Shown here: positions 16,053-41,246 of the stretch, one piece after another
Numbering within the stretch: position 1 is the stretch's first letter
Layout: the number at the start of each line of letters is the position of its first letter
Program-made: the position numbers and the translations under genes
Assembly (NCBI GenBank): GCA_042568575.1
Contig: JBHPIO010000001.1
Span: 162,285 to 226,284 of the forward strand
Direction: 5' to 3'
Origin: Patescibacteria group bacterium
GTDB taxonomy: Bacteria > Patescibacteriota > Gracilibacteria > UBA1369 > PNNO01
Length of the DNA: 64,000 nt
The notes under the pieces: model-generated
Databases searched by the model: none
The model's input: the letters and a program-made list of their open reading frames with translations, nothing else
Told to the model about the DNA's origin: nothing

Positions 16053-16168
16053 TCTTGGCAGCGCCCTACTCTCCCACAACTCATGCTGCAGTACCATCGG
16101 CGAAGAGTGGCTTAACTTCTGTGTTCGGGATGGGAACAGGTGTACCCCACTCTCAAGAGCTACCAAGA
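16053..16168 (-). rRNA. rrf: 5S rRNA
   Basis: CCCATCCCGAACAC, GCCGATGGTACTGC, GAGAGTAGG on minus strand; complementary ends. Confidence 0.95.
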
Positions 16169-16315
16169 CAGTGGCTTTTAAAGCTACTGTCTAAAATTGA
16201 CATGTTATTTCCACAAATTGCTAGTCTTAGCACTAATTTAGTGCCGGTACTAAATCCCTAAAAAATATGGGGACTTAGCACCAACACCGCCGTGCTAAAA
16301 AATACGTTTTAAATA

Positions 16316-19304
<2,989 letters not shown>

Positions 19305-19351
19305 ATTTTTATATTAAAACGTACATATCACGTCAGCGAACTGACATGATT

Positions 19352-22527: not shown

Positions 22528-22547
22528 ATCATTAATAATAGTGCAGG

Positions 22548-23234
22548 ATGAAAAAAGAAGCGCTAATTTCTACGAAAAATCTTTCGAAAGATTATATAAC
22601 CGGCACCGTAGTTACCCAAGCACTCAAGGGTGTTGATTTCGAAGTACATGAAGGAGAGTTTATTGCAATTATGGGACACTCAGGAAGTGGCAAATCAACA
22701 TTAATGCATATTCTCGGATTCTTGGATGTACCAACTGCTGGCGACTATATTTTCGATGGTAAAAATACAAAGAAATTCGATGACGACAAACTTGCTGAAA
22801 TAAGAAATAAAAAAGTTGGATTCGTATTTCAGGCTTTTAATCTCCTGCCAAGAACTACAGCTATTGATAACGTGCGCCTTCCAATGATTTACGCTGGTGT
22901 TCCCGAAGAAGAGCAAATCAAAAGAGCAAAGAAGGCTCTGCATGACGTTGGACTTAGTGACAGGATGAATAATAAATCAAATGAGCTTTCGGGAGGTCAG
23001 CAGCAACGTGTCGCAATTGCGCGAGCTTTAATCAACAAACCAAGAATTATTTTTGCGGATGAGCCTACCGGAAATCTGGACAGTACTTCGAGTCGCGAAA
23101 TCATGGAAATTGTCGACAATCTTCACAAAGAAGGTCACACAATAATAATAGTAACTCACGAAGACAATATTGCCGCACACGCACAGCGAATAACAAAGAT
23201 GAAAGACGGGCTAACATTTAATGGACACTCATGA
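22548..23234 (+). CDS. MacB/LolD-type ABC ATP-binding protein
   Basis: [30 protein letters not shown]. Confidence 0.95.
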
Positions 23235-24463
23235 ACCACTGGTTAACTATAAAACTTGCAATAACCGGACTTCTTGCGAATAAGATGCGGGCATTTTTGA
23301 CCATTCTGGGAACTATAATAGGTGTATCTGCAATTATTGTAATCGTATCTGTCGGGAATGGCGCTGAATCATTAATAGTGAGTCAGGTTGAATCAATTGG
23401 ATCAAATTTAGTTGGTATACTGCCTGGTGGAAGCGATGAAGATGAGCCACCGGCTGCTTTAATGGGAATTGTAATCACAACACTCAAATATGAAGATATT
23501 GCGGCACTACGAGATATTCCAAATGTTGTTGAAGTTGCTGGCTATAATAAAGAAGTAGGAGAAGTTGTTTATAAAAATAATAAAACAGAAACCACGCTCA
23601 CAGGAACATTTTCTAGCTACCCGGTAGTTGAAGAGGCAGATCTTTCCGAAGGAAGATTTTTTAATGAAACGGAAGAACGGGGCATCGCAAAAGTTATTGT
23701 TCTTGGATCGCAAATAAAAAAGGATCTATTTGGAAGTAGAAGTCCTATTGGGGAATCAGTAAAAATCCAGAGTGTTTCATTTAAAGTTATTGGTGTGATG
23801 GAAGAACGGGGCGCAAGCGGCTTTTCAAATAATGATACGCTTGTGTTTATTCCTGTTAAGACAATGCACAAATTAATCCTGGGTGTTAATCACCTGGCGC
23901 TTGCGCGTGTCAAAGTAAATGACGATCAAAATGTGGAAGAGGTTATGGCAACTGTGGAAAATATTTTAAGAGGCAGGCACAGCATTGATGACCCTAAAGA
24001 TGACGACTTTACTGTAGCAAGTCAGGCGCAAAGTCTAGATACGGTGCAGAACATCACAGGAAGTATAAAAATTATGCTTACGGCAATTGCGTTTATCGCT
24101 CTTATTGTTGGAGGAATCGGAATTATGAATGTTATGTATATAGCCGTAACAGAACGTACAAGAGAGATCGGGCTGCGAAAAGCACTTGGAGCAAAACGAA
24201 AGGACATCCTGAGCCAATTCCTTGTAGAAGCAGTTTCAATCACAAGTATTGGAGGGGCTATCGGAATAATCATTGGGGTTCTATTTTCTGCACTGGTTGC
24301 GGCAACCATTCAGTATTTAGGTTACGACTGGGCGTTTATCGTGACCGGCGATTCGATAATAATAGCAAGTCTTGTTATAGCAGGTGTAGGAATTGTTTTT
24401 GGATACGGTCCTGCAAAAAAAGCTGCCGGCTTACCGGCAATCGAAGCATTAAGGTATGAATAA
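23231..24463 (+). CDS. MacB/FtsX-family ABC permease
   Basis: [40 protein letters not shown]. Confidence 0.95.
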
Positions 24464-24468
24464 TATTT

Positions 24469-25731
24469 ATGTTTGATCTAAAGAAAATAAAATTAGCGAT
24501 TCAACTTGCAGTTCAAGGTCTAAAAACGAACAGACTTCGAACAATTTTAACGACTGTCGGGATTGTAATAGGCATTTCAACGGTAATTATCGTACTTGCT
24601 GCAGGAAGAGGCCTTGAAACATATATCATCAAGCAAATGGAAATTTTTGGTTCAGACACAATTGAGATTGAGATAAAGCTTCCAAGTACATCTGATGTTG
24701 AAATGATGTCAGCGATGATTGGAGGAGCAGAAGTTACCACACTTAAAAAGGAAGATTTTGAAGCCGTAAAAACTCTCGAAAATGTTGATGAATACTATGC
24801 GGCGATTCTTGGTGAATTTAAAACTGTATATAAGAATAAGAATGTCAGCGCCACAATTCTTGCCACAACTGCAGGAGAACCGGCAATAGAGCCTGATTTA
24901 AAAATGCAACAGGGAAGATTTTTTACAGAAAAAGAAGATAGAGCAGTTGCTAAAGTAGCAATACTTGGATCTGAAATTAAAGAAGATCTTTTTGGAGCCG
25001 AAGATGCAATCGGAAAGAATATCAAAATAAATCAGGTAAGTTTTAAAGTGATAGGTATAGCTGAATCACGCGGAGCAGCATTCTACTTCAGTTACGATAA
25101 AATGATTTACGTACCACTAAAAACTGCTCAGAAGCTCCTTTTGGGCATTGAGCATGTTCTTTATGGATTCGTTTCAGTCCACGATACTACACGCGTTAAA
25201 GAAACTGTTGCAGAAATGATCACCATAATGGAAAGAAGACACGGAATCCCTCCTGGGAATGAAAAGAAGCACGACTTTAGAGTTACAAGTATGCAAGAAG
25301 CAATGGAGATAATGGGAACTGTTACTTTTGCAATTACACTACTAGTACTCGGTGTCGCAGGCATATCCCTACTTGTTGGAGGTGTTGGAATTATGAACAT
25401 CATGTATTTAACAGTTTTAGAACGCACAAGAGAGATCGGACTACGAAAAGCATTAGGAGCACCAAACAGTTTAATCCAAGCTCAGTTCTTATATGAAGCA
25501 ATCATTATTACCGGCCTCGGTGGCCTTGTTGGAATAGCACTTGGATGGGTCATTGTTACTTTAATAGGCTTTGCTGCATCTCTTCAGGGATTTAATTTCG
25601 ATCTAGGAGTTAGTTTAGACGCAGTTTTAGTTGGCCTGGGAGCATCTCTATTCTTCGGAGTCATCTTCGGATTATATCCAGCTCGAAAAGCTGCATCACT
25701 TAGTCCTGTGGAAGCGCTTAGGTGGGAATAA
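24469..25731 (+). CDS. MacB/FtsX-family ABC permease (second paralogue)
   Basis: [33 protein letters not shown]. Confidence 0.95.
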   Translation: MFDLKKIKLAIQLAVQGLKTNRLRTILTTVGIVIGISTVIIVLAAGRGLETYIIKQMEIFGSDTIEIEIKLPSTSDVEMMSAMIGGAEVTTLKKEDFEAVKTLENVDEYYAAILGEFKTVYKNKNVSATILATTAGEPAIEPDLKMQQGRFFTEKEDRAVAKVAILGSEIKEDLFGAEDAIGKNIKINQVSFKVIGIAESRGAAFYFSYDKMIYVPLKTAQKLLLGIEHVLYGFVSVHDTTRVKETVAEMITIMERRHGIPPGNEKKHDFRVTSMQEAMEIMGTVTFAITLLVLGVAGISLLVGGVGIMNIMYLTVLERTREIGLRKALGAPNSLIQAQFLYEAIIITGLGGLVGIALGWVIVTLIGFAASLQGFNFDLGVSLDAVLVGLGASLFFGVIFGLYPARKAASLSPVEALRWE

Positions 25732-25733
25732 GC

Positions 25734-28700
25734 TTAAACAGCTTCATTTTTGTTCTCATTCAGCCAAATTACATCGCAGTCCTTCACTGAATATGAAGGT
25801 GAAAATGAAAATGCTTTTTCTGTATCAAATGAGAAATCTTGATCGACATCTTTTATGCGTTCATTCATGGCTCTTTCAAACTCCCCTCCTGTACGATTTG
25901 TACGAATTTGCTTATTTTTAGACATCAAAATCATATCTATGTTGTTATCCTCCGCGAATTGACCTAATTGATCAACCAAACCATTAAGTAACTGCCCCTC
26001 ATTTACTTTAAACAAATAAGTACTAGATGGATTTATTGAAGCTGTGAGGATTTTTTTTCCGCCCTCTTCGTAATGATGCAATAGAACTGCACCTTGGCAT
26101 GTTTTTGTTTCTTTATCTCTTAATACCATCTGAAAATACTCAGACATATTCCACTGACATTCTATCTTTGAAGGCTCATCTTCTTCACTCTTTGCTAGTT
26201 TTGCCGGATTATCCCCTGCTACACACACACCACCAACTTGCCTAGCATGTGCAGAAGTGTGATTCTTTGTTATAAAACATTCAAGCTTTCTTAATTGTTT
26301 GCCCTGTTGCTCCTCTTCTTTTGGCTGATATTTGGCAACCTCTCTATCAATAAAACCAAGTTCTTCTTCAAATATACTTTGAAACAATTGAGTTAAATAT
26401 TGATAAAATAGATTCTCATCATATTCACCTTTATCAACTGACTCTTGTGCTTCCAAATATTGTTCAAAATTCAATTCACCCAAATTTATTTCAGATGGAT
26501 CTACCTCTTGGCCAGTAAGTTGTTTAACAATAGAAGCAGCCTTCCTTCTCTCTCCCTGAATCATTCCAAGATATGCTCTTTCTTTTTTGCCAAGCTCTAT
26601 TTCTCCATACATTTCAGGATGATCTAACATTTCCTGCGTCACTAGTTTCACTTGCCCAATAGGTGTTCCTTTTCCTTTTAACATTCTTAATACCTTGCTT
26701 TTCAATGCACCTCGCCACCCTATTTCACTAGCTCGCATTTTATTCAATACAGCCTGACTTTTTTCTCTTTTATCTGAAGAGCTTAACTGTTTAAAATAAT
26801 CAGGAAGTATTTTAACAATATCTTCATTTTCATGTGCATCCTTTGCGACCTTCCTCTGTACCTCCTTTAGATGGTCAGCAAAAAACTCTCTTAGTTCTAG
26901 CATGTATGCATATTCAGGATTTTTTGCTTGTTCCGCCCTATCGCGAGTACCATCCAGGTATTCCCTAATACCCTGAAATTCAGCAAATTGATATGCAATT
27001 AAAAGTTCCTTTAACTCTTTAGGGTCCAAATCCCCTGTTAAGCTTTCTAAAAGCAAAGCAAATATCTTTTCTTCACGGGTATTAAACATCTCTTTATTTT
27101 TAGCACCTTGGAATCTCTTATCGATTTCTTCATCTAAAATTCTTCGCATTTCATCTTGTTTAAAATCAACCTCAGCAAATCTCCCCTGTATCCTAGCAAT
27201 TGGCCCTTGCAACCTATTTAATCCAGCCTCATCTTTTTTCTCCCCTTTTCTTAATTGCATTTCAACACCTTCGGCCAAATCAATCATATAAACATCTCGG
27301 ATTTTAAAATCCGAAAGATCATCCGACCTGTCCCTGCAACTTTCATTATTTTCGAAATTAGTCCAGTTTCCGGAATTATCCTGAAAAACATGGTTAACTA
27401 AGGCCTCATAGTGCTCCATTTCGGTAATATCCCCTGGTTGAGTATCGTTTGATATTAATGATTCAATATTTTGCTGAATAGCCTCTACAAATCCTCTTGC
27501 TGCCACTTCATTATCTGCTTTTTTGAAATCTGCATACCTCTCATAAATCTCTTTGTCAGCAATATTCAAATCTTTTCTGTAAGCTAATAAATGATGTTTT
27601 TTCTCCAATGACCTTAATGCTGTTTCAGGCACGACTTCCAAATTGTTTACCAAATTCATTACGCCACCTTCAGTAATTGAAGCTTCTATTGCTTCAGTTA
27701 AAACTTTTGTTTTTAATCCAACTTTTCTACTCACTTCCATCGCCGAAGAAACGCGCCCTTTTATAATTTCATATATTACCGTATTTTTACCCGCTTTTGT
27801 AATCCACCTTTCATTACTTTTCCTCTTCTTCAGAAGTTTTACATTCTCATCTTCTAATTTTGAAGTAATTCTTTTAGCATCATCTCTTTCATTAGCCGCA
27901 TCAAATAAACTGTTTTCAGCATCTGATATTAATTCCTCAGGAAATTCAACTTTTCGACTACTTGCGGATTGCACAAGCAAAGCTAAAGCATATTTATAAT
28001 TACCAATCAAAATCTTTAGAATATCTAAAGACCAACTATAAGATTCATAGTTTGCAAAATTCCGAATGAAATCTACACATGCATGCTCTTGTTTTCGATT
28101 ATTTTTTGCTACAAATTGCCAATATTCCTCTTCTTTCTTAAAGTCCTCAGGAATGTTTGCGTAATCAAGCCTTCCTAAATAGCCACTATTAAGCAACAGA
28201 CTTAATAATTTAACATAATCATCAGAATATTTTGCTACCCATAATTCAACTTTGAAACTATACAATTCATCTTTTGCCGCCAACTCTATAAGCAGATCAA
28301 TCAAGAAATAATCAACCACTTCAGGAAGGTTATCGTTTCTGTATACGCGCTTGACAATTTCTAAAAAGTCGCTTCGTTCAAATCCGTAGTTTTGCTCTAA
28401 TTCTTCCCGGCGACCTATAAGTTCCCATCCAAAATGTGAAGCATTTTTTACAATTACTAATTTCTGAAGCTTTTTAGGAAGTTTCTCAATTAATGGCTTG
28501 ATCGTTTCTAATGTAATTGAAGACGAAAAATTCGAAGTTGCAAGGACTTTCGAGATAACATCCTTATAATTTTCATTCTCAGTTGCAACCATTAAGCGCT
28601 CCAAAGAAGCAGTGGAGATTGGCAACAAACTGGATTGCTCGATTTCATCAAGAATTGCTAAATCGGCCTCAGCATCAAATAACAATAAATGTGTGATATT

Positions 28701-31700
28701 AAAATTTTGTTCTCTACCCCATTTATCCTTTTTAACTATGCCATGTAGTCTTTCCGCCACTTTTAATACTGATAAATATTGTTCGTCTCTCAAATATTCT
28801 ATAGCATTTACAGGATCGTGAATTAGGATATATGAAGGCAATTTCTTTAATTTTGCAATTACGTCTTCATCTAGGTTTTTACAAAAATTTGCAACTTGTT
28901 CATTTGTTCCAGATTTTATTAAATTATCGAAGTATCTTAATTCATGCTTAAATAATTCAATTAATAATTGAAAATTTTCACTTTTGGCAATAATAATTAA
29001 ACTTCTTATATGTTCAGGATTTTCACATGGTGGATAAGTTGTTTCACTTAGTAAACTTGATAAAAGTTCCAAGTTTTGCAGAGTATCAGAATCCAATTCA
29101 GCTATTTCTTTAGCAACTTCGGGAGAACTACTGCTACCAAATGCTTTCTCTCTTATTCCATATTCTAATGTTTTTTCTAAAGAGCCTGGTACACTCGATA
29201 ATTCCCCACGACTTCTAGTCTGCCACCACTTTGATCTACGTATTGCCGAAAACTTAACTCCATATAAATCCTCTAATTCATCGTCATTATAGGAGCCAAA
29301 ATCTTGATCTATTTGATTTTTGATCTCTTCAGCGGTCTTGCCTTGTTCTAAAAGCACCTTTATAAATCCGATAACTTCAATCGAAATACGACCACCTATT
29401 AATTCATGGAGTTCGCGTACTTCTTCATAATCCTCATGGTTAGTGTTCTCTACGAATTTAACTATATTTTTATACTCATACCCGTTGCTGTAATAAAAAT
29501 ATGAGGAAATTTTAGAAATTCTTCTGATATCAAGCTCATTACGTGAAGCTAAGTCTAAAGGCAATCCCGGATAAATCTCGACATGCTTAAACCCATCCAT
29601 AATATCATCATCCAATATTAATGGAGACTGTTCGTAAGCTGCCAACAGATCCTCATTTATCTTGAAATTATAATTCAGCTTAAAACCTCTCTCCTCTAAA
29701 GCGTAAACCTTCTCAGCGAGAGCAATATATTTTGATAAAAGACCTGGATCTTTGTAGGCATCGTCTGGAAATGAATACTTCCAGATGAGCGGATTTTCCA
29801 GAATTGTAATATCTAAGTCAAGCAAAACGTTTTGGAAATACTCTTTTTGCAAAAATAACTCTATTGCCTTCTTTGAATTTTTAATTTTAGCAAATTTTTC
29901 ATTACTTAAATACATAACTTTTTGCATTTCTTCTACATTCAATTTTCTTTTCAAAGTCGCTTCAGCACTAGCTATATTTGCATTTCCAACGTCTACATCC
30001 ACTTCAGATACATCATAATAAGAAGTCCATGGATTCATAACTGGTTTATTTAACAATGCCGAAATTTTGGCCCTTTTTTCCAGCTCTTCATCGCTATAAT
30101 CCATAAATTGCTCATAAAGAACATCTCTCAAACAAATTCCGGGAAATATTTGTGCCACTTTATTTGCTCTTTTAACAAACTCGTTTATATCAAAATCTGA
30201 CATCCAAAATTTATTTGCCTCAAACTTATCTCTATATAATTCTTGTTTAACATCCTCCGGCGAACCAAGATGATATGCACTAGAAAGCCCGGCATCATAC
30301 AATGCATTCATTTTATCGATACTTCTCATACCTGTACCCTCATCCAAATAATAATATAATGGCAAACATTCAGGTCTCTCCGACATCTTAATGATAGCTC
30401 CTGAAATAAAATGCTTTTTTGATTCATTTAGAAAATCCAGAACTTGTTTTGTATTCCCCCACTTCATAACTTCAAGTATTTCATATCGAAATCCATATTC
30501 GGAAAGTACAACACAGCGCTCTTTAATTTCCCTTGGAGATTTGGCTAAATACTCAATTGGATTGCCGCCTCCTTGTGATTTATGTTTGACAATTCGTCTT
30601 ATCAAATCAATTATTGCGCCTTCAACAATTTGCAGGTCTGCTTTATTGCTTCCATCACTGAATAAAGAACCATTCAAATAGGTATCTATTGCTTGAAACT
30701 CCACACCAGAAATAGTATAAAACACTTTCAGTAAAGGCTTCATTAAATCCGCATCATTAAAAAAGCATCTTTCCATCAAATCCGTAAAATCATAAATTTC
30801 CTGCATATTACCAACGCTCCTTGAATAAGGCTCGCATTCATTATCGCTGGTAAAACTCACTTTTTTTGCAACAAATTTACTCGAATTATCGGAAAATCGT
30901 TCCACTAGTTTATTTGCATTTTGTGATGCAACATTTTCTTTCCCTGCAATTTCAAAAAGATCAAATATTCTACTATCTGGATTGTTAAACAACTCTCTAT
31001 ATTTGGGTGTTTCTCGATAAAATAGCAATCCTTTTTTCCCCCTCTTCCATCTGATTGCAGAGAAATATCCACTTAATCTCTCAAAATTTGAAAAACTTAA
31101 AAGCATGTTTGAATTATTCACAAGACCGGCGTATTCAAAATAGTTTTGCATTTCAGTTGAATTTTCTATTTTATCAACTATTTCTTTATTTAAACCATGA
31201 TATCTTTCTGGCGCAAAATAATTAAAAAAATCATCCTTCATATCATCCGGAACTGCTTCAACATATTCTTTGAAACTTTTATACAATGAGTAGTGAGGAT
31301 GTAACCTTGAATTTCCCCAACTAGTTACTCTTAATTCTTTAGCATGATATCGAATATTTGTAGGTAGATTTTGATAGAATTTTAGAACTTCATCCATATC
31401 ACCTATATCCTTTTCTCTATCTCTTCCCCACCGCCCACCGGGAAACCAGCCGTTTAATTTATGTAATTCCTCGTCAGTGCATTCGTCCTGCAAACTAATA
31501 TTGTTAAGAGCCATTATCGCAAATAGAGAAACCGAATGAATTTTTAATCCTTCAATACTTTCCTTTTTCAGCCCTAAATCAGATAACTTAATGTAAACGT
31601 ATAGATGTGCCCAACCAATTTGAGAGGCACCTTTCTTTATAATGTCATAAACTTGATTTAGCGCTTTTGATCGCGCACTTTTATCAAACTCTTTTGCAAT

Positions 31701-32156
31701 TCTCAAAATAAATTCCTTGTCTGCTTGAGTATAAGTGGGCAAATAACCAATAAAGTCCTTAAATTCAAAAATCATTTCAGCAACATCACCCGCATTCGGT
31801 TCTTTCGAAATATCATCCCAAAGCTTTTGTTCTGCTTCAATTTCCGTTCCTGATATACCTAAAAGTTCTTTATATTTTTGAATAATTTCATTAGTAATCT
31901 CATATGCTGCCTGTTCATGCGAACCTTCAAAAATCTTTTGCAAACGAACAGAGGTTTTTATTGTATCAATAATGTCTTCCGGCGACACCCCACTTTTAAT
32001 TTTTGCTAATTTCTCAAAAAGTTTTATTGCATTATTTTTTCTAATACTTTCAATAACATCTGTAGGAATCTCCCCTGTTTCATCCAAATACGACAGAAAT
32101 TCCTCCTTTCGAAAGTCATTAACATCGTTTGATTTTCTGTCCGGCTTTTTTGACAC
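25734..32156 (-). CDS. Giant hypothetical protein (about 2140 aa)
   Basis: 6.4-kb open frame; start placed at GTG 32156, downstream of TTGCTT-N17-TATAAT (32210-32182). Confidence 0.85.
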   Translation of the reverse strand: MSKKPDRKSNDVNDFRKEEFLSYLDETGEIPTDVIESIRKNNAIKLFEKLAKIKSGVSPEDIIDTIKTSVRLQKIFEGSHEQAAYEITNEIIQKYKELLGISGTEIEAEQKLWDDISKEPNAGDVAEMIFEFKDFIGYLPTYTQADKEFILRIAKEFDKSARSKALNQVYDIIKKGASQIGWAHLYVYIKLSDLGLKKESIEGLKIHSVSLFAIMALNNISLQDECTDEELHKLNGWFPGGRWGRDREKDIGDMDEVLKFYQNLPTNIRYHAKELRVTSWGNSRLHPHYSLYKSFKEYVEAVPDDMKDDFFNYFAPERYHGLNKEIVDKIENSTEMQNYFEYAGLVNNSNMLLSFSNFERLSGYFSAIRWKRGKKGLLFYRETPKYRELFNNPDSRIFDLFEIAGKENVASQNANKLVERFSDNSSKFVAKKVSFTSDNECEPYSRSVGNMQEIYDFTDLMERCFFNDADLMKPLLKVFYTISGVEFQAIDTYLNGSLFSDGSNKADLQIVEGAIIDLIRRIVKHKSQGGGNPIEYLAKSPREIKERCVVLSEYGFRYEILEVMKWGNTKQVLDFLNESKKHFISGAIIKMSERPECLPLYYYLDEGTGMRSIDKMNALYDAGLSSAYHLGSPEDVKQELYRDKFEANKFWMSDFDINEFVKRANKVAQIFPGICLRDVLYEQFMDYSDEELEKRAKISALLNKPVMNPWTSYYDVSEVDVDVGNANIASAEATLKRKLNVEEMQKVMYLSNEKFAKIKNSKKAIELFLQKEYFQNVLLDLDITILENPLIWKYSFPDDAYKDPGLLSKYIALAEKVYALEERGFKLNYNFKINEDLLAAYEQSPLILDDDIMDGFKHVEIYPGLPLDLASRNELDIRRISKISSYFYYSNGYEYKNIVKFVENTNHEDYEEVRELHELIGGRISIEVIGFIKVLLEQGKTAEEIKNQIDQDFGSYNDDELEDLYGVKFSAIRRSKWWQTRSRGELSSVPGSLEKTLEYGIREKAFGSSSSPEVAKEIAELDSDTLQNLELLSSLLSETTYPPCENPEHIRSLIIIAKSENFQLLIELFKHELRYFDNLIKSGTNEQVANFCKNLDEDVIAKLKKLPSYILIHDPVNAIEYLRDEQYLSVLKVAERLHGIVKKDKWGREQNFNITHLLLFDAEADLAILDEIEQSSLLPISTASLERLMVATENENYKDVISKVLATSNFSSSITLETIKPLIEKLPKKLQKLVIVKNASHFGWELIGRREELEQNYGFERSDFLEIVKRVYRNDNLPEVVDYFLIDLLIELAAKDELYSFKVELWVAKYSDDYVKLLSLLLNSGYLGRLDYANIPEDFKKEEEYWQFVAKNNRKQEHACVDFIRNFANYESYSWSLDILKILIGNYKYALALLVQSASSRKVEFPEELISDAENSLFDAANERDDAKRITSKLEDENVKLLKKRKSNERWITKAGKNTVIYEIIKGRVSSAMEVSRKVGLKTKVLTEAIEASITEGGVMNLVNNLEVVPETALRSLEKKHHLLAYRKDLNIADKEIYERYADFKKADNEVAARGFVEAIQQNIESLISNDTQPGDITEMEHYEALVNHVFQDNSGNWTNFENNESCRDRSDDLSDFKIRDVYMIDLAEGVEMQLRKGEKKDEAGLNRLQGPIARIQGRFAEVDFKQDEMRRILDEEIDKRFQGAKNKEMFNTREEKIFALLLESLTGDLDPKELKELLIAYQFAEFQGIREYLDGTRDRAEQAKNPEYAYMLELREFFADHLKEVQRKVAKDAHENEDIVKILPDYFKQLSSSDKREKSQAVLNKMRASEIGWRGALKSKVLRMLKGKGTPIGQVKLVTQEMLDHPEMYGEIELGKKERAYLGMIQGERRKAASIVKQLTGQEVDPSEINLGELNFEQYLEAQESVDKGEYDENLFYQYLTQLFQSIFEEELGFIDREVAKYQPKEEEQQGKQLRKLECFITKNHTSAHARQVGGVCVAGDNPAKLAKSEEDEPSKIECQWNMSEYFQMVLRDKETKTCQGAVLLHHYEEGGKKILTASINPSSTYLFKVNEGQLLNGLVDQLGQFAEDNNIDMILMSKNKQIRTNRTGGEFERAMNERIKDVDQDFSFDTEKAFSFSPSYSVKDCDVIWLNENKNEAV

Positions 32157-32289
32157 TTTTATATTTGTTTTAAATCTGAATATTATACAGCAAAAAGCCA
32201 AAAAAAGCAATTCTATAGCAAAAAAGAAAACTATGAAAAGGAATACTTTTCGAAAGGACACCTCACTGTTTCCATTCAAGCTTCTCTTC

Positions 32290-32470
32290 CCTAAATCGTT
32301 CACTTCGTTTACGCCGAAGAAGGTTTTGCTACACAAAACTCGCTCTGAGTACTTAACCATCCGATTCGTGCTTCGCACACTCCATCGTACTTTCTCTACC
32401 TACTCAATCAGTCGCTTCGCTTCTTCTTCGTAGCTAGATCTAGCACCTTCGGGCTCGAGATTAGTTCTCT
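32290..32470. repeat. Mini-hairpin-rich intergenic element (GCTTCGC/GCGAAGC); shares a 20-mer with 51367-51386
   Basis: GTACTTAACCATCCGATTCG at 32349-32368; GCTTCGC at 32370 and 32414. Confidence 0.5.
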
Positions 32471-32521: not shown

Positions 32522-32598
32522 TGGTGGGCTTGCGTGGACTTGAACCACGGGCCTCGTCGTTATCAGCGACGCGCTCTAACCAGCTGAGCTACAAGCCC
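32522..32598 (-). tRNA. tRNA-Ile(GAT)
   Basis: GGGCTTGTAGCTCAGCTGGTTAGAGCGCGTCGCT-GAT-AACGACG...GTTCAAGTCCACGCAAGCCCACCA. Confidence 0.97.
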
Positions 32599-32713
32599 AC
32601 ATATTTTTTAGCTGCTAATTATAACAGTAACAGCTCGACTATTTTGCCAAAGTTAAACCTGTTTTGCAAGATGATTTTAATGTAATATGCTTTATGAAAT
32701 TAAAAACATCACT

Positions 32714-34690
32714 ATGATCATTCCCCTTCTAAAACGCTTATCTAAATTCATTAATAAGCATAAGCAAACGATTTTTATTGTCGGCACTCTTTTAACCTGG
32801 ACTGGTGTTATTTTCTTCAAGCAAGGAGGACAGAGCCTTCTTGTTCATTACATGTGGCCAAGCATTGTTTTTGTAAACTTCTGTCTTATCTGCCGGTTCA
32901 AGATGTTTAAAAACAACTTTAGCATCCTGCACTTGCTGGCAATTCTTAGTGTTATTTTCTTCTTTATCACTTTTATTACCGATCTCTCCCCTTCCGATGG
33001 ATCGCTTGAACTGATGAATATCAGCGGAGGTATTCTTCTTGCAATTGTATTGAGTCAGCTTAATTGGAATAGAAACAAATTGATGCTACTTTTTGTCATA
33101 ATGATAATCACGATAAGCATTGTTGATGTATGGGGAATCATTAGTTACGCAACAGCGCATCCTTTTAATAGACTCGCTGGACCTTTAATGAAACCACACG
33201 AAGCTTTTGCTGGATTTCCAAATCTAGCAGCAAATCTGAACTTAATGATCCTTATTCCTGCTTTTTATCTGTTTGTTGAAAGCCTTAAGAAAAAAGGCAT
33301 TCATAAAATAAGCTTCTTTATCGTAAATATACTTATACTTGCAAGCCTGGTTCTTACATATTCTCGTGCTGCATGGGCAAGTGCGGGCCTTGTTATCGCA
33401 ATTGCTGCAATTGTTTTGCTTATCAAATATAGAAAGAATGCCAAGGAAAGTCTTACATACATTAAAAGCGGCGTTCTAGTAGTACTTATAAGCCTCCTTC
33501 TTGTAACAGCATTAAACGGAGTTCGAAGCATGAACGAAGAAACCGAATCAATCCAAGATAAGATTGCATTCCAATCTGGAGATGAAGGAAGTTCAATTGA
33601 AGAACGAATAGCATCATTCGAAAGAGGAATTCAAATGGTAAAATCATATCCATTAACAGGTGTCGGGGCTGGCAGCTTTAACTATATATCTCAAAGTTCT
33701 GAACAAGATTTTAGTACACTCTCAAGCTACCCATATAGCCTTCCTGTAAAGATAGTTGCCGAACATGGAGTTATCGTATTCTTATTACTTGTTGCCTGGT
33801 TAGTATCAGTAATCGTAAAAGGATTAAGATCCGACCAACCATACACTCTTGTCGCTGCGCTTACTTTAGCGATTTTATTGATCCATCATTCGATCGATAA
33901 TAACTTCGATTTCTTTGCAGCTAGCCTCCCCTTCTTCATTTTAACTGGGTTTATTTGGAAGCCTACAAAAAAGAAATCAACAATAAACAATGGATGGCTA
34001 CTTGGCCTCGTACTTCTTATTACCTTAGTCGGTCTCGCATTTGTGACATATGAAGGGTGGTATGGACGATATTATGTACAAGGAAGAAATGCTGCAGGAA
34101 GCGGCAATCACGAAGAAGCGTATAAAAAATATGAACAATCAGAGTCGCTGATATTTGAGCGCGATGCAAAACTTGCAACAGCTTTAAGCGCGTGGGAGTT
34201 GTACAAAAATAGTGATCAAATTAAATGGCTTGAAAAAGCTAAAAGCAAAGCCTCAAGCTATCGAGAAAATGAAAACCCTTTAGATCGAAGAGGAAGTTTG
34301 TTGTTAGCTAGAATAGATCTTGAACAAAAAAACTATCCAGAATGTCTTGAATGGGTTTATGACGCGCAGACAATCGGAGGTGAAAATTACTTTGAAGCTG
34401 ACTATTATGAACTACTCTGTTTACAAGGCTCAAACGAACAGGTAAAGATCGAAGAATTTGCTGCAAACATCAAACCAAAGCTTGAGAAGTACCTTGAGCT
34501 ATTAAAAGTCAATTCGCACATGGCAGTCCTAACAGATAATCCTAAATTTGCTATATATATACTGGAAGAACTCAAAGAAAACAGTGATGATTTCACTACC
34601 CTATACGAAGAAATGTACGAAACTGGCAAAATGGAGCTTGAAAAGTTCCACCAGAAATACGGAATAGAAGCTGAATCTATTTACAAATAA
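32714..34690 (+). CDS. O-antigen ligase (Wzy_C)/O-oligosaccharyltransferase-like membrane protein with TPR-like C-terminus
   Basis: About 12 TMs; FPNLAA, LTYSRAAW, YPLTGVGAGSF, VAEHG. Confidence 0.8.
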   Translation: MIIPLLKRLSKFINKHKQTIFIVGTLLTWTGVIFFKQGGQSLLVHYMWPSIVFVNFCLICRFKMFKNNFSILHLLAILSVIFFFITFITDLSPSDGSLELMNISGGILLAIVLSQLNWNRNKLMLLFVIMIITISIVDVWGIISYATAHPFNRLAGPLMKPHEAFAGFPNLAANLNLMILIPAFYLFVESLKKKGIHKISFFIVNILILASLVLTYSRAAWASAGLVIAIAAIVLLIKYRKNAKESLTYIKSGVLVVLISLLLVTALNGVRSMNEETESIQDKIAFQSGDEGSSIEERIASFERGIQMVKSYPLTGVGAGSFNYISQSSEQDFSTLSSYPYSLPVKIVAEHGVIVFLLLVAWLVSVIVKGLRSDQPYTLVAALTLAILLIHHSIDNNFDFFAASLPFFILTGFIWKPTKKKSTINNGWLLGLVLLITLVGLAFVTYEGWYGRYYVQGRNAAGSGNHEEAYKKYEQSESLIFERDAKLATALSAWELYKNSDQIKWLEKAKSKASSYRENENPLDRRGSLLLARIDLEQKNYPECLEWVYDAQTIGGENYFEADYYELLCLQGSNEQVKIEEFAANIKPKLEKYLELLKVNSHMAVLTDNPKFAIYILEELKENSDDFTTLYEEMYETGKMELEKFHQKYGIEAESIYK

Positions 34691-34744: not shown

Positions 34745-37519
34745 ATGATTCCTCTCTCCAAAATTATAAAAAAAGCGTCATACTTAAATAGCAAGGAGGC
34801 CGATCTAGTAGAGAAGGCATATAATTTTGCAAAGAAAAACCATAAAGGACAAGAAAGGAAATCAGGAGAACCATATTTCAATCATCCAATCCGTACTGCA
34901 TTAATACTTACTGAATACAATGCAGACGTAGAAAGCATTTGTGCCGCACTTTTGCATGACGCGCTGGAAGACACGGAAGCTTCTTTTGACGATATTAAGA
35001 AGCTTTGCGGCGAAGAGATTGCCAATCTGGTCGCAGGAGTAACTAAGTTCGGAGAAGAGCATTTCAGGGGCAATAATCACCTTGAAAGAAAAATCGAGAC
35101 ACTGAGAAAGCTTTTCACTGTTATGGAAAAAGACATTAGAGTTATTATCATCAAACTCTGTGACCGATTAGATAACATGAAGACTCTAGACGCCTTATCT
35201 GAAGATAAACAAATAGCATTCGCTAAAGAAACCTTAAAAGTTTATGTGAAAATTGCAGATAGATTATGTATGCAAAGAATGAGAAATGAACTTGAAACAC
35301 TCTGTACCTATTACCTAGATAGAGATCAATACACGAAGTTCTTAGTTGCAAAAAAGAATGGACTCGCAAATAAGAAACTTATAAAGTCAGTTAATGATAG
35401 TTTAAAAGAGAAAGATAGAGAAGATATAATAACAAAAATTAGATTCGTCCCAATAGAGATGTGTGATTTTAAAGAAGGAACCTACGGCAAAAAAGATTAT
35501 TTTTGTACTGTTACAACTAAATCAATTGAAGACTGCTATAAAGCGGTTTTTTATGTTCATAGTTTGTGGGAAAGCATTAGAACTTCATTCAACGATTTCA
35601 TTAATCGTCCTAAAATTAATGGGCATAAAGCATTATATTCAAAAGTACTAACAAGCAAGGAAAGAAGCATCTATTTTAGAATCAGTACACAGGAATGGGA
35701 AACATATTATGTTAACGGTATAACTACGTACTGTTTCTCAAAAAATGATAAAGGAATTAAAGGGCAAAAGGGTCTCGACTGGATTAAAAATCTCAAAGAA
35801 ATTAATAAAAAAACGCAAGGACATAGCGATTCATACTGGAAAGGTCTTCAGAACGATATATTGAAAAACACAATTCTGATTTACGGAAAAAATGATGAAG
35901 GAATAATTCTACCTGAAAACGCAACTGCCCTTGATGCTGCATTCTATATGCACAAGGAAAAAACACTGTTTCTAGACGAGATATCCGTTAATAACAAGCC
36001 GGTACCGTTATTCCATAAACTCAGTAATAATGACATAATAAAATGCACTTTCGACACAAAAGAAACAGCTCATTATCAGTGGTTTAACCATATAGAAACA
36101 ATAATCGCAAAAGGATTTATACAAGATTTCCTTCACAAAAAAGAAAAAGAAAAGAAGATTAAGATTGGGAAAGAGCTTTTGCAAAAGGAATTTATAAAAC
36201 ATCAGAAAGGATTCGTTAATGAGGTGTCCACTTCTGAAATTACGCGCGTCCTTAGCTTAAGTGAAGCCTCTTCATTAGAAAAACTATATGGCTCTATTGG
36301 CGAAGGAAAAATTACTCCAGAAGAAGGTTTTATTTATTTCTTTCCTTATGAGGATAAAAAGAAGAAAAAATCGAGTCACAAAATTACTGTAACTCTTCGC
36401 AAAGATTCAATGCTAGATGTAATCGCACTCTTTCCGAATACACCTGACACAAGAATCAGGTTCTCGGACTGCAATACTAAAGGAATAACGAATCTTACAG
36501 CAAATGTGTACCTTCATTCCGACTTAACGCTCAAAGATCTAATTAAGGGCATTCAAAGAGTTGATGGAGTTGAGTCTGTTAAGGATGAAAACATAACAGA
36601 AAAAAGAAAAGCCAATATTTATACAGGCCTCCTCGCCTTTCTGTGGGGATTAGACCCGATCCTCGCATATTTATTGCTTAAAACAGGAATATCACCTCTT
36701 CCATTTACGGCATTAAGATTTTTCACAGTAGCGATATTTCTTGGAATTGTTGTTCTACTCTCAATGAAAAAAATAAAAAAACAATCACGGTTCTCCATGT
36801 GGCGTATTTCATTCGGATTATCAGTAGTATTCTTGATTGCCACCGCATATGCCACCTACTATTCACTCTCAAACACCTTCCCGTCAAACTATCTTTTAAT
36901 ATTACATTTATCAATATTACTTACGTTTATATTCGATTCAGTAAAAAGAAATATTAAAAAAATATTCAGCAAAAATTCTATTTTAAATATATCTTTATTA
37001 GCTTTCGGCATATTGTTGTTTCTTTACTTCAACAAAGCAAGCATTACTACAACTGCAACGCTTTTGCTCGTTCCAGTAATATTTTCAGCTTACACATTAA
37101 GCACAGAAAAATATTGTAAGACAGAAAACATTAAAGCCAGGCAGACAATGATGATTTTCCTCTTTCATGTTATTGGAGCAATACTATTGTCCCCCTTTAT
37201 ATTCACACTCTCTTTGTCGTTTTCGTTTTATCAATACATTTTATTAGCTGCCTTTTTTACTATATTTTGTGGCATATCGTACCTTTTGTACTCTGCAAAA
37301 GTGCAAGAAATAAGCAACTATATTCTTCTCTCAATTTTTATATTCATTGGAATTGCCGATCTGATTGTGGAATCATTCTTTGTACCAATGCATGTGACAC
37401 TTCTAAAACTCCTATACGTAGTAGTAATAGATACAGGTATTTTCTATGCAATATTCAAAAAAACATCATCTGAAAAGAAAGAATACAATCTTGTTTCTCA
37501 GATAATATTAAGACGATGA
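34745..37519 (+). CDS. RelA/SpoT homologue (HD hydrolase, degenerate synthetase, TGS, ACT-like) fused to C-terminal EamA/DMT transporter
   Basis: HKGQERKSGEPYFNHP, LLHDALEDT, IKLCDRLDNMKTL; LPENATALDAAF (TGS); from about 36617 roughly 10 TMs starting LAFLWG...FTALRF. Confidence 0.85.
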   Translation: MIPLSKIIKKASYLNSKEADLVEKAYNFAKKNHKGQERKSGEPYFNHPIRTALILTEYNADVESICAALLHDALEDTEASFDDIKKLCGEEIANLVAGVTKFGEEHFRGNNHLERKIETLRKLFTVMEKDIRVIIIKLCDRLDNMKTLDALSEDKQIAFAKETLKVYVKIADRLCMQRMRNELETLCTYYLDRDQYTKFLVAKKNGLANKKLIKSVNDSLKEKDREDIITKIRFVPIEMCDFKEGTYGKKDYFCTVTTKSIEDCYKAVFYVHSLWESIRTSFNDFINRPKINGHKALYSKVLTSKERSIYFRISTQEWETYYVNGITTYCFSKNDKGIKGQKGLDWIKNLKEINKKTQGHSDSYWKGLQNDILKNTILIYGKNDEGIILPENATALDAAFYMHKEKTLFLDEISVNNKPVPLFHKLSNNDIIKCTFDTKETAHYQWFNHIETIIAKGFIQDFLHKKEKEKKIKIGKELLQKEFIKHQKGFVNEVSTSEITRVLSLSEASSLEKLYGSIGEGKITPEEGFIYFFPYEDKKKKKSSHKITVTLRKDSMLDVIALFPNTPDTRIRFSDCNTKGITNLTANVYLHSDLTLKDLIKGIQRVDGVESVKDENITEKRKANIYTGLLAFLWGLDPILAYLLLKTGISPLPFTALRFFTVAIFLGIVVLLSMKKIKKQSRFSMWRISFGLSVVFLIATAYATYYSLSNTFPSNYLLILHLSILLTFIFDSVKRNIKKIFSKNSILNISLLAFGILLFLYFNKASITTTATLLLVPVIFSAYTLSTEKYCKTENIKARQTMMIFLFHVIGAILLSPFIFTLSLSFSFYQYILLAAFFTIFCGISYLLYSAKVQEISNYILLSIFIFIGIADLIVESFFVPMHVTLLKLLYVVVIDTGIFYAIFKKTSSEKKEYNLVSQIILRR

Positions 37520-38437
37520 GCTTAACTCCTCGAGCATTTTAGATGCAAGGTTTTTCGCCGAAATGTAACATACATGCTTTAATACTTTGCAACCACCCAG
37601 TTCCCCTCTGATAATCCCTACCTGTGTAAAGCCTAACTTTTTAGAAAAATTTGTAGAAACTGCATTTAAAGTTAATTCTTCTTCTTGACCTGAATAACCT
37701 ACAATTATTTCTGACACAATGCCTGTATCATCTAAACTGCTCAAATCCAATTCTTTAAAAGCGGCGTATGATAAAAGCTTCATAACATCAGAAGATCTTC
37801 CTCCATCTGATTTTCTTGCCCTTAAATAATCGTGTATCCAAAAAATATTCTTCTTATCAACATTCATTCCTCTCATATTTCCCCTTACTTCTTCATATGG
37901 AGGACCATGTATAGTATCAAAATATATTGAGCTATTATTTTTTGGATCATGTTGATCACTAGGTGGATATACAAAATCCACCAAGGCCAAAACCCTTTCA
38001 ACTCCATCAATTTCCCTCTTCAAAACATACATCTTATATTCTGGACATCTGAAATCTTTCCTCAAATCTTCAGCCGTTGGAATAAAAAACATTCCACCAT
38101 AAGTTTCAAAATCTTTTATTCCTCCTGGATTCCCATCATGAACCGATCTACTTTGATATAATTCAACTATTTGCGGAATATCTGCTTCTGTTGCAACCAC
38201 AATCCGTTCTTTTTGCTTAACGCTTTCAACTCCTGAAGTAACAATATCTCGAACAATTTGCTCTTCTGGAAACATAGCCATTTGCTCAGATGCATCTGGG
38301 GCTTCTTCAATTGATACAGTGTTATCTCTACTATCAACAACGTCTGTTGCACAAGAAGTAAACCTTGGCCCCTCTACTCTAACGGCATCTAATACCGTAC
38401 CACGTGTTTCTGGTCTTTTTTTTAAAGGCTCAACCAT
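37508..38437 (-). CDS. Hypothetical protein with GNAT-like acetyltransferase domain
   Basis: IVVATEADIPQIVELY at domain start; NAVSTNFSKKLGFTQVG at end. Confidence 0.6.
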   Translation of the reverse strand: MVEPLKKRPETRGTVLDAVRVEGPRFTSCATDVVDSRDNTVSIEEAPDASEQMAMFPEEQIVRDIVTSGVESVKQKERIVVATEADIPQIVELYQSRSVHDGNPGGIKDFETYGGMFFIPTAEDLRKDFRCPEYKMYVLKREIDGVERVLALVDFVYPPSDQHDPKNNSSIYFDTIHGPPYEEVRGNMRGMNVDKKNIFWIHDYLRARKSDGGRSSDVMKLLSYAAFKELDLSSLDDTGIVSEIIVGYSGQEEELTLNAVSTNFSKKLGFTQVGIIRGELGGCKVLKHVCYISAKNLASKMLEELSSSS

Positions 38438-38455: not shown

Positions 38456-38998
38456 TTAATTAAATAAAGCTTTTGCATGTATAGCATACATTTTTCTTTC
38501 ATCTTCATCCATACCCAACAGCTCATCAATAGCTTTTTCCATTTCAAGAGGAGAAATATCTAGTTTAATTTCTTCATTAAGATCACTTTCATCTATACTT
38601 GAAAGCTTATCAGAAAATACTATATAGGCAACAATAGAAGATCCATTTATTACTCTAGGGTCACCATCTACTTCATATTCTAAAAGTTTCGTAAATAGTA
38701 CTAAAGAAACCTCTTCGTCATTACTTCGCGTTGAAAGAAAAGTATCAATTGAAGCCGCAACTACTCTGATATATGTTCTTATTCTCAGACGCTCATCAGT
38801 ATTCTCAGGCGTAAATTCGCTGCCCATTTCTCCTGAAGGCACTCCCCTTTGATCATCTGCGGCATCAAGAACTTGAATTACACCATTAGCTTCAAGCGGA
38901 TCATGCTCACCACCACTGGTATCAATTATGCCATCAGATTCAGGGAAATCGTCCTCTCCTGAACCACCAAACCCATCTTTTCCTTCACCATCTCTCAT
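38456..38998 (-). CDS. Acidic hypothetical protein
   Basis: 180-aa ORF; upstream TTGACA-N14-TGT-TAATTT promoter (39058-39030). Confidence 0.75.
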   Translation of the reverse strand: MRDGEGKDGFGGSGEDDFPESDGIIDTSGGEHDPLEANGVIQVLDAADDQRGVPSGEMGSEFTPENTDERLRIRTYIRVVAASIDTFLSTRSNDEEVSLVLFTKLLEYEVDGDPRVINGSSIVAYIVFSDKLSSIDESDLNEEIKLDISPLEMEKAIDELLGMDEDERKMYAIHAKALFN

Positions 38999-39086: not shown

Positions 39087-39163
39087 TGGTGGAGCAGAGG
39101 GGAGTCGAACCCCTGACCTCCCGCGTGCAAGGCGGGCGCTCTAGCCAACTGAGCTACTGCCCC
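39087..39163 (-). tRNA. tRNA-Ala(TGC)
   Basis: GGGGCAG...CCCGCCT-TGC-ACGCGGG...CTGCTCCACCA with G3-U70. Confidence 0.97.

Positions 39164-39780: not shown

Positions 39781-41246
<1,466 letters not shown>

Follow-up and report, generated by a model that had tools for sequence, protein, structure and literature searches.

A long RelA/SpoT homologue with an intact hydrolase site and a degenerate synthetase, joined in frame to a DMT-type membrane domain in a Patescibacteria genome

The 64,000-nucleotide stretch of DNA analyzed here, hereafter the window, lies on contig JBHPIO010000001.1 (positions 162,285 to 226,284) of assembly GCA_042568575.1, from a Patescibacteria group bacterium. The gene of concern is a single open reading frame (ORF) on its forward strand that begins with ATG, runs from 34745 to 37519 with the stop codon included in the end coordinate, and encodes 924 amino acids. 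A long RelA/SpoT homologue (RSH) occupies its first two thirds and a membrane domain of the drug/metabolite transporter (DMT) type the remainder, and at the domain junction (nt 36592/36593) the frame is unbroken and holds no stop; the product is called the RSH-DMT protein below. An original prediction, made by a model from the letters and their ORF translations, had proposed this fusion, and the motifs it quoted can all be read in the translation: HKGQERKSGEPY (H33-Y44, spelled out as H33-x-G-Q36-x-R38-x-S40-G-E-P-Y44), H71 D72 with E75 D76, DRLDN (140-144), NGHKALY (292-298), YFRIST (310-315), LWG (633-635) and ALRF (656-659). The NCBIfam model TIGR00691 (spoT_relA) covers only residues 25-557, with 357.1 bits against a cut-off of 499.2, and since this score lies below the NCBI threshold the protein counts as a diverged relative and not as a member; on such profile scores it is a clear but diverged long RSH. 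Domain boundaries and Pfam scores are collected in Table 1, and the full-length AlphaFold2 (AF2) model cited there was built on a family profile of 111 members (A2).

All of the HD catalytic residues are present, namely R38, Y44, H47, H71, D72, E75, D76, K137, D140, R141 and N144. A census of 183 N-terminal regions was made, comprising 115 from fused proteins with ten transmembrane (TM) helices, 14 from fused proteins with 14 TM helices, 23 from RSHs with a TM tail and 31 from soluble enzymes, the last being 30 random picks from the 125 collected together with the soluble paralogue of the genome itself. The hydrolase sites counted were the Arg of RxSG, the Tyr of PY, three His, the Asp of HD, the ED pair, the residues of KL.DR and the Asn, and in the N-terminal alignment these were kept, site by site, in 97-114 of the 115 fused 10-TM members. 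The DRLDN found for DRLHN is a minor variant, shared by 8/111 family members and by one Haliangium Rel. In Acinetobacter baumannii SpoT, according to the available text of PMC9974481, alanine at R45, Y51, E82, D83 or N147 abolishes hydrolysis; by motif spacing these residues would correspond to R38, Y44, E75, D76 and N144 here, and K140 and R144 of the same enzyme to K137 and R141.

The synthetase is altered at each of its signature motifs, with RxK replaced by V..I, NGYQSLH by NGHKALY and EVQIRT by YFRIST, so that the Glu of EVQIRT is Y310 and its Gln R312, and the Arg that follows the Mg-site Asp is a Thr. D251 may lie at the Mg-site position or one residue off it. Across the 115 10-TM proteins the column of the EVQIRT Glu holds Glu once and Arg 81 times, and the Mg-site Asp stands at its column in none, with an Asp within three columns in 24 (D251 included). 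Both catalytic acids together were found in 0/115 10-TM proteins, 1/14 14-TM proteins, 14/23 TM-tail RSHs and 29/31 soluble Rel. The fold nevertheless survives: in the model, residues 1-331 superpose on the N-terminal domain of Rel (7oiw) with Z 34.5 and a root-mean-square deviation (rmsd) of 2.2, residues 196-346 align with the small synthetase SAS1, and RelA_SpoT (PF04607) reaches 33-48 bits in the homologues P0004-P0006, as opposed to 24.9 in the RSH-DMT protein. At the level of sequence, then, the HD active site is intact and the synthetase catalytic residues are lost, as the original prediction had it on both counts. A precedent is A. baumannii SpoT, described in the available text of PMC9974481 as a hydrolase-only long RSH with a regulatory pseudo-synthetase.

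Beyond the pseudo-synthetase the model contains a beta-grasp at residues 376-436 (DSSP strands 376-380, 386-390, 410-415 and 431-436), and the family profile matches the TGS structures 2kmm, 7doj and 3hvz at E 2.7e-7 to 5e-7. The claim that TGS is retained thus stands for the fold and fails for the sequence, which scores below the Pfam cut-off and belongs to a family in which the His of the TGS “IHT” motif is mostly gone: that column holds His in 3/111 members (the RSH-DMT protein among them), Phe in 45, Tyr in 29 and Leu in 23. Helices follow at 444-540, and then a beta-alpha-beta-beta-alpha-beta unit at 543-616 whose last strand (609-616) passes straight into the helix 617-645, which is TM1, as one continuous, high-confidence element; the C-terminal regions of RelA and Rel (5iqr_8, 6htq_x) align as far as model residue 614. 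The stretch between the helical region and TM1, equivalent to residues 540-620 of the RSH-DMT protein, is 77-94 aa long in 111 members (median 83 aa), compared with 169-175 aa in canonical Rel, and contains one Cys in the RSH-DMT protein and at least three Cys in only 4/111 members. This shortness and paucity of Cys indicate that the zinc-finger domain is absent family-wide, which extends to the family what had been predicted for the one protein. In Rel and RelA the zinc-finger domain and the “IHT” His are points of contact with deacylated tRNA and the ribosome. Loss of the zinc finger, and mostly of the TGS His, argues that ribosome sensing has been abandoned. The regulatory half of SpoT wraps round and controls the catalytic core, as far as the available text of PMC9974481 describes it.

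The C-terminal part had been predicted to hold about ten TM helices with a DMT fold. A hydropathy scan yields nine helices between residues 627 and 904, and the AF2 model has ten TM helices and two short helices between 617 and 910. Pfam EamA matches only the first repeat of the RSH-DMT protein, and among the 11 aligned C-terminal domains that make up profile A3, free-standing ones included, it matches 11/11 at E <= 0.01 (best E 2.6e-45). Profile A2 finds the DMT permease LicB (7b0k) with E 5.1e-7, covering chain residues 15-290 of 292, and YddG (5i20) at E 4.1e-5; with profile A3 the YddG match reaches E 7.3e-9 and spans residues 2-287 of 298. When model residues 618-906 were placed on solved DMT structures by Foldseek and VIA-align 2, the matches were human SLC35B1 (9gry_A; Z 25.2, rmsd 2.9, 274/295 aligned), a triose-phosphate translocator (5y78_A; Z 24.9, 291/305 aligned), Vrg4 (9s36_A; Z 22.4), LicB (Z 18.6) and YddG (5i20_C; Z 15.5), a ranking that partly tracks conformational state, with outward-facing SLC35B1 (9gs5) at 16.4, and so says nothing firm about substrate. 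Conserved positions include L633-W634-G635-x-D637-P638 and, among the 111 members, W634 (107), R658 (109), Y705 (99), Y716 (87), F780 (86), Y783 (83), R799 (110) and Y846 (80); position 845 is Pro in 89/111 and Ser in the RSH-DMT protein. As modelled, the C-terminal part is a complete 10-TM, two-repeat DMT/EamA fold, and a transport role is predicted for it.

Table 1. Features of the RSH-DMT gene, Pfam matches of its product and the two paralogous RSH genes of the same genome.
Feature	Residues	Nucleotides	Strand	Basis
Whole gene, long RSH + DMT		34745..37519	+	ORF; P0001 85% identical over 100% of length; AF2 mean pLDDT 91.6, pTM 0.84
HD (p)ppGpp-hydrolase domain (predicted)	25-174	34817..35266	+	Pfam HD_4 E 3.5e-38; MESH1 and small alarmone hydrolase structures, Z 17-20
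Pseudo-synthetase domain	~196-346	35330..35782	+	fold retained, catalytic residues replaced; SAS1 (5ded) Z 12.8
TGS-like beta-grasp, sequence degenerate	~376-440	35870..36064	+	DSSP strands; family profile
Helical region (AH/RIS)	~444-540	36074..36364	+	Pfam RelA_AH_RIS below cut-off; all-helical in model
ACT/RRM-like beta-alpha-beta-beta-alpha-beta domain	543-616	36371..36592	+	DSSP of model; no zinc finger before it
Complete 10-TM DMT domain	617-910	36593..37474	+	Pfam EamA, profiles, structure alignment
EamA repeat 1	~625-760	36617-37024	+	within DMT domain
EamA repeat 2	~767-910	37043-37474	+	within DMT domain
Pfam HD_4 (PF13328)	25-174			131.2 bits, E 3.5e-38, cut-off 27.2; passed
Pfam EamA (PF00892)	625-760			31.2 bits (34 bits, domain alone), cut-off 28.2; passed
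Pfam RelA_SpoT (PF04607)	256-322			24.9 bits, cut-off 27; below
Pfam TGS	388-433			13.1 bits, cut-off 22.2; below
Pfam ACT_4	569-613			14.2 bits, E 0.072, cut-off 27; below
Pfam RelA_AH_RIS	464-543			16.7 bits, E 0.0078, cut-off 23.8; below
Paralogue A		C29 (L002 370-2577)	-	735 aa, soluble; synthetase motifs, TGS, zinc finger and ACT intact
Paralogue B		C30 (L001 763-3144)	+	793 aa; both catalytic sites intact, no zinc finger; adjoins mnmA

The same architecture recurs well beyond this genome. Homologues of the same length are 85, 68 and 66% identical (924, 916 and 919 aa; from NCBI, JGI and Logan), and more distant ones of similar length 31, 28 and 28% identical (933, 919 and 939 aa), one of them named Candidatus Peribacterales. 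A profile of these seven proteins, the RSH-DMT protein included, was scored against 1.84 billion cluster representatives (50% identity clusters), and the best 150 comprised 107 of 870-970 aa, most of which span profile positions of about 3 to 915, 13 of 1085-1124 aa, and 30 that were shorter and mostly truncated-looking. In the ESM Atlas the corresponding cluster has 189 members, a 917-aa representative annotated “hypothetical protein” and, as its commonest phylum, Candidatus Peregrinibacteriota. The 41 genomes of the organism's own order contain the full fused gene in G000, in the same-genus genome G001 and in G014, and a copy split over two contig ends in G025. Profile A3 was also searched against 301 genomes sampled from the class and matched at E <= 1e-12 in 75; the open frame containing the match measured 916-979 aa in 34 genomes and 1047-1163 aa in 19, for 49 distinct genomes in all, both sizes occurring together in four (G255, G279, G300, G310), while the remaining matches were in frames of about 160-700 aa, free-standing or cut. 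Matches cluster by family, with any match in 32/40, 9/12 and 6/7 genomes of families f25, f36 and f41, and an RSH N-terminus was found in the same frame in 10/10 long frames retrieved (E <= 3e-95). A hidden Markov model (HMM) of the C-terminal domain missed a 1109-aa frame in locus L106 that A3 found. Short free-standing relatives of residues 615-924 were not found by a word-based search but were by the genome profile searches.

A search based on the HD motifs returned 80 loci, mostly ordinary Rel, of which only L014, L015 and L019 are named Peribacterales or Peribacteraceae; in L015 and L019 the match reaches the DMT region (residues 13-870 and 22-883), and L014 is truncated by the end of its contig. 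By these names the group falls within Peribacterales and Peribacteraceae, and the RSH-DMT protein is part of a large Peribacteria/Peregrinibacteria family with the same architecture. The only public run with any part of the stretch, X1, covers little of it, yielding two 151-nt contigs at 36145-36432 that leave the junction outside. That the fusion is an artefact of assembly or sequencing joining two genes can be set aside almost entirely, given the same architecture in same-genus G001 and in G014, the proteins from three sources, the 107 representatives and the ESM Atlas cluster, and the continuous high-confidence helix across the junction in the model; the single-frame fusion of the original prediction is upheld by these independent assemblies and by more than 100 diverged cluster representatives.

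Counting the one in the window, the genome itself (1.2 Mb in 31 contigs, 81.8% complete) carries three long RSH genes. In paralogue A the HD site has degenerated (HEVPQY in place of HDxxED, with further changes), and its motifs are RelA-like. Paralogue B is apparently bifunctional by its motifs, and its ACT domain passes into a conserved 4-TM tail (model pLDDT 79.3); the models of this protein and of the window protein are alike in that the last ACT/RRM strand continues directly into TM1. In three genomes of the order (G013, G021 and G031) a gene of the B type is followed directly by a free-standing DMT gene of 335-346 aa, and these match the C-terminal domain of the RSH-DMT protein end to end at E 8e-28, 2.8e-23 and 4.6e-23; in a fourth, G032, RSH and DMT share one frame of 1112 aa. 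Separate genes in relatives had been named in advance as a finding that would speak for an artefact. They are literally present in 3/41 genomes of the order, where they would mark an unfused ancestral arrangement and not an artefact.

A sister architecture of about 1100 aa (L097 120-3455 on the reverse strand, P0206, P0236, P0251, P0254 and others) combines an RSH with a dead synthetase, a 4-TM module and a 10-TM DMT domain, giving 14 TM helices, and co-occurs with the 10-TM form in the four genomes named above. The linker helices of these proteins are recognized by an HMM built from the B-type tail, as in P0254 residues 650-789 (E 7.8e-21). Made from about residues 651-791 of the C30 protein, this HMM also picks up, weakly, the two EamA repeats of fused proteins and, in some basal 10-TM members, repeat 1 (E 1e-6 to 5e-8). 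The tail may have arisen by reduction of an EamA half, or TM composition alone may produce these matches. A free-standing EamA/DMT gene of 292 aa also lies on C30 (37554-38375, reverse strand; A3 E 3.8e-18), about 25 kb from the RSH gene there.

Relationships were examined with FastTree (LG+gamma, 570 columns) on the 183 N-terminal regions, a set of Rel and fused or TM-tailed RSHs without proteobacterial SpoT. Midpoint rooting was rejected as misleading, the fused clade being long-branched, and the tree was re-rooted on soluble Rel. Fused proteins then group with the TM-tailed RSHs, apart from the sampled soluble Rel; the B-type clade branches off first, followed by a grade of 14-TM proteins and then the 10-TM proteins, among which the clade of the window protein is nested (with P0001/L009, P0002 and P0003; support 1.0). 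This suggests, tentatively because of the long branches, an order in which a TM tail came first, then a neighbouring DMT gene, then a 14-TM fusion with loss of the synthetase, and finally the 10-TM form.

As predicted, the gene sits within a dispersed rRNA locus, between the 16S (39783-41246, reverse strand) and 23S (16312-19305, reverse strand) rRNA genes, with tRNA-Ala (39087-39163) and tRNA-Ile (32522-32598) on either side of it. Over 16053-41246 the rRNA genes are unlinked, 16S being about 20 kb from 23S and 5S (16053-16167, reverse strand), and the interval contains the two tRNA genes and a dozen protein genes, the RSH-DMT gene among them. These protein genes also include an HlyD-like gene with a MacB-type ABC transporter set (20644-25731, forward strand) and a gene for a Wzy_C protein (32687-34690). 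An ORF of 2214 aa (25734-32378, reverse strand) that lacks any Pfam match at E <= 0.001 separates the ABC transporter genes from tRNA-Ile. The RSH-DMT gene is faced by two convergent ORFs (37508-38437, reverse strand, 309 aa; 38456-38998, reverse strand, 180 aa and very acidic), neither with a Pfam match; a same-genus genome (L009) has ORFs of 314 and 168 aa at the matching place, a likeness of size and position alone. No neighbour of the fused gene was found to be conserved across L009, L010, L015 and L019; an upstream AhpC-family gene and a downstream class I tRNA synthetase gene are common to L015 and L019, and an upstream Wzy_C gene to the window and L009. Scans for promoters (22 promoter-like sites, 26.3 expected) and terminators (8 terminator-like sites, 5.0 expected, one of them inside the RSH-DMT ORF at 36642-36667) were uninformative.

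Patterns detected are consistent with a genuine single gene encoding a membrane-embedded, hydrolase-only, SpoT-like long RSH whose activity would be coupled to its transporter domain, a reading to which we assign a probability of roughly 0.6. The suggestion of a membrane-tethered (p)ppGpp hydrolase or sensor, made in the original prediction, fits everything seen in the sequence and the model. Very probably the enzyme degrades, at the membrane, (p)ppGpp made by the two paralogues, such that A and B would make the alarmone and the RSH-DMT protein would remove it. On balance, the C-terminal half appears to have exchanged ribosome and tRNA sensing for coupling to a DMT domain, tying alarmone removal to the supply of a transported and probably host-derived metabolite. 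With TM1 of a permease holding the regulatory half, hydrolase activity could be set by the ligand of the DMT domain or by its transport state, relayed to the hydrolase via the modelled RRM-TM1 link. Tentatively, the stringent-response off-switch of Peribacteria might be a transceptor, in which a metabolite from the host, perhaps a nucleotide, is bound or carried by the DMT half, and this half gates hydrolysis through a rigid RRM-TM1 link; if so, alarmone levels would be set by nutrient flux across the membrane instead of by ribosome or tRNA status, and the series from adjacent genes through the 14-TM fusion to the 10-TM fusion with synthetase loss would show how the device evolved.

Several observations weigh against a coupled, membrane-embedded SpoT-like enzyme. 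The protein scores under the curated cut-offs of TIGR00691, PF04607, PF02824 and PF13291; whole-chain superposition of the model is poor on SpoT 7qpr (rmsd 17.5 over 488 residues) and on Rel 6yxa (rmsd 13.9 over 422 residues); mean column identity is 0.34-0.36 in the TM domain as against 0.63 in the HD domain; a paralogue with a mere 4-TM tail indicates that anchoring alone has also been selected in the clade; and no RNA run containing the gene was found among the public runs checked.

An alternative explanation could be that the DMT domain is a membrane anchor only, for a hydrolase that is constitutive or otherwise regulated, with no role in transport or sensing. The C30 paralogue and its relatives, held by a simple conserved 4-TM tail, would favor this, as would the TM domain being the least conserved large part of the protein and EamA being matched at E <= 0.01 in the window protein and not in P0004-P0006 scanned full length. 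Against it stand the retention of a complete 10-TM DMT fold across members only 21-32% identical and the near-invariance of W634, R658, Y705 and R799; EamA is matched by every C-terminal domain of A3, the same domain stands free beside an RSH gene in relatives, which fits a working permease that was later fused, and ten helices are far more than an anchor needs. We therefore regard an anchor as unlikely, although it is the strongest of the alternatives.

Less probable still is that enzyme and transporter serve one pathway, the DMT domain moving a nucleotide or phosphate compound that the HD domain processes at the cytoplasmic face, as in the import of host guanine nucleotides or alarmones or the export of product, so that the protein would act in scavenging or channelling and not in signalling. 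Bacteria of the candidate phyla radiation generally lack de novo nucleotide synthesis, which would suit such a role, and the best structural matches of residues 618-906 are antiporters of nucleotides, nucleotide sugars and phosphate (SLC35B1 with AMP-PNP or ADP, Z 25.2 and 24.5; the triose-phosphate/phosphate translocator, 24.9; the GDP-mannose transporter Vrg4, 22.4), to which may be added the two near-invariant Arg, R658 and R799. But this ranking tracks conformational state, as noted for 9gs5, and the nearest solved relatives by sequence are YddG and LicB, which handle amino acids and choline; R658 and R799 lie at the starts of TM2 and TM7, the position of R658 aligning to an Arg in the second repeat of LicB, and the synthetase-competent RSHs of the genome need a hydrolase in any case.

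A further possibility, which we consider very improbable, is that (p)ppGpp is not what the HD domain acts on and that its substrate is instead, say, (pp)pApp, or NADPH as in MESH1. The fold is indeed common to the (p)ppApp hydrolase 7smg (Z 15.5) and to MESH1 with NADPH or PAPS (Z 19.6), but both sequence and fold are closest to the N-terminal domains of long RSHs (Z 32-35, 29-35% identity), and the guanine and phosphate contacts given for SpoT in the available text of PMC9974481 would all be present by motif spacing (R38, K39, K137, R141, T147 and L151).

Preferring the hydrolase-only, transporter-coupled enzyme, we may compare it with known systems. Canonical bifunctional Rel (B. subtilis 6yxa, S. 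equisimilis 1vj7, S. aureus 7oiw) has the same HD and SYNTH folds at its N-terminus (Z 32.8-34.6, with an rmsd of 2.1-2.2 Å to 1vj7 and 7oiw) and TGS and helical regions in the same order, and differs in that the RSH-DMT protein has lost the synthetase residues, lacks the zinc finger and is membrane-embedded, with the “IHT” His mostly lost across its family. Also close is SpoT[H] of Acinetobacter baumannii and other Moraxellaceae (7qpr), the top Foldseek hit of the model (E 7.9e-26), which, in the available text of PMC9974481, is likewise a long RSH with an active-type HD domain and a retained dead pseudo-synthetase in a genome with separate synthetase-competent RSH(s). SpoT[H], however, is soluble, proteobacterial and keeps both zinc finger and RRM (PMC9974481, same text), whereas in the RSH-DMT protein the zinc finger is missing and the RRM leads into a 10-TM DMT domain. 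Loss of the synthetase appears from the tree to have arisen inside the Peribacteria RSH lineage, and the likeness to SpoT[H] is treated as convergent and not as membership. The DMT permeases YddG (5i20), LicB (7b0k), SLC35B1 (9gry, 9i20) and 5y78 share the 10-TM two-repeat EamA fold (Z 15.5-25.2) at a sequence identity of 9-14% and carry no N-terminal cytoplasmic signalling enzyme. Within the lineage, the 14-TM proteins of about 1100 aa share the RSH core, dead synthetase and DMT domain, and the window protein is without their 4-TM linker module; RSHs of about 800 aa with a 4-TM tail share the RSH core and, unlike the window protein, mostly keep the synthetase (14/23).

Long RSH enzymes are, in the textbook view, soluble and ribosome-associated sensors. 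Full-text literature searches brought up no paper on an RSH joined to a DMT domain or to any other polytopic membrane domain. In the census papers PMC7229694 and PMC3153485 the word “transmembrane” occurs 0 times in the main texts, as does “EamA” in that of PMC7229694, and their supplements, which list 13 long-RSH subfamilies, could include this group. The RSH-DMT protein is a variant on known long RSH and DMT parts, in a combination that appears undescribed in the texts searched. The family offers a natural, lineage-wide case of a hydrolase-only RSH branch built into a transporter fold, with the zinc-finger domain lost and the conserved TGS His lost in most members, and, alongside SpoT[H] of Acinetobacter, a second, independent example of the specialisation described there. 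The series from neighbouring genes to fusion is unusually direct genomic evidence of an RSH and a DMT permease working together, and a 1.2-Mb genome appears to show a division of labour among three RSH paralogues. Such a design could move stringent-response control from the ribosome to the membrane, and it provides a concrete, testable model of how ultra-small, host-dependent bacteria may link nutrient uptake to the control of growth.

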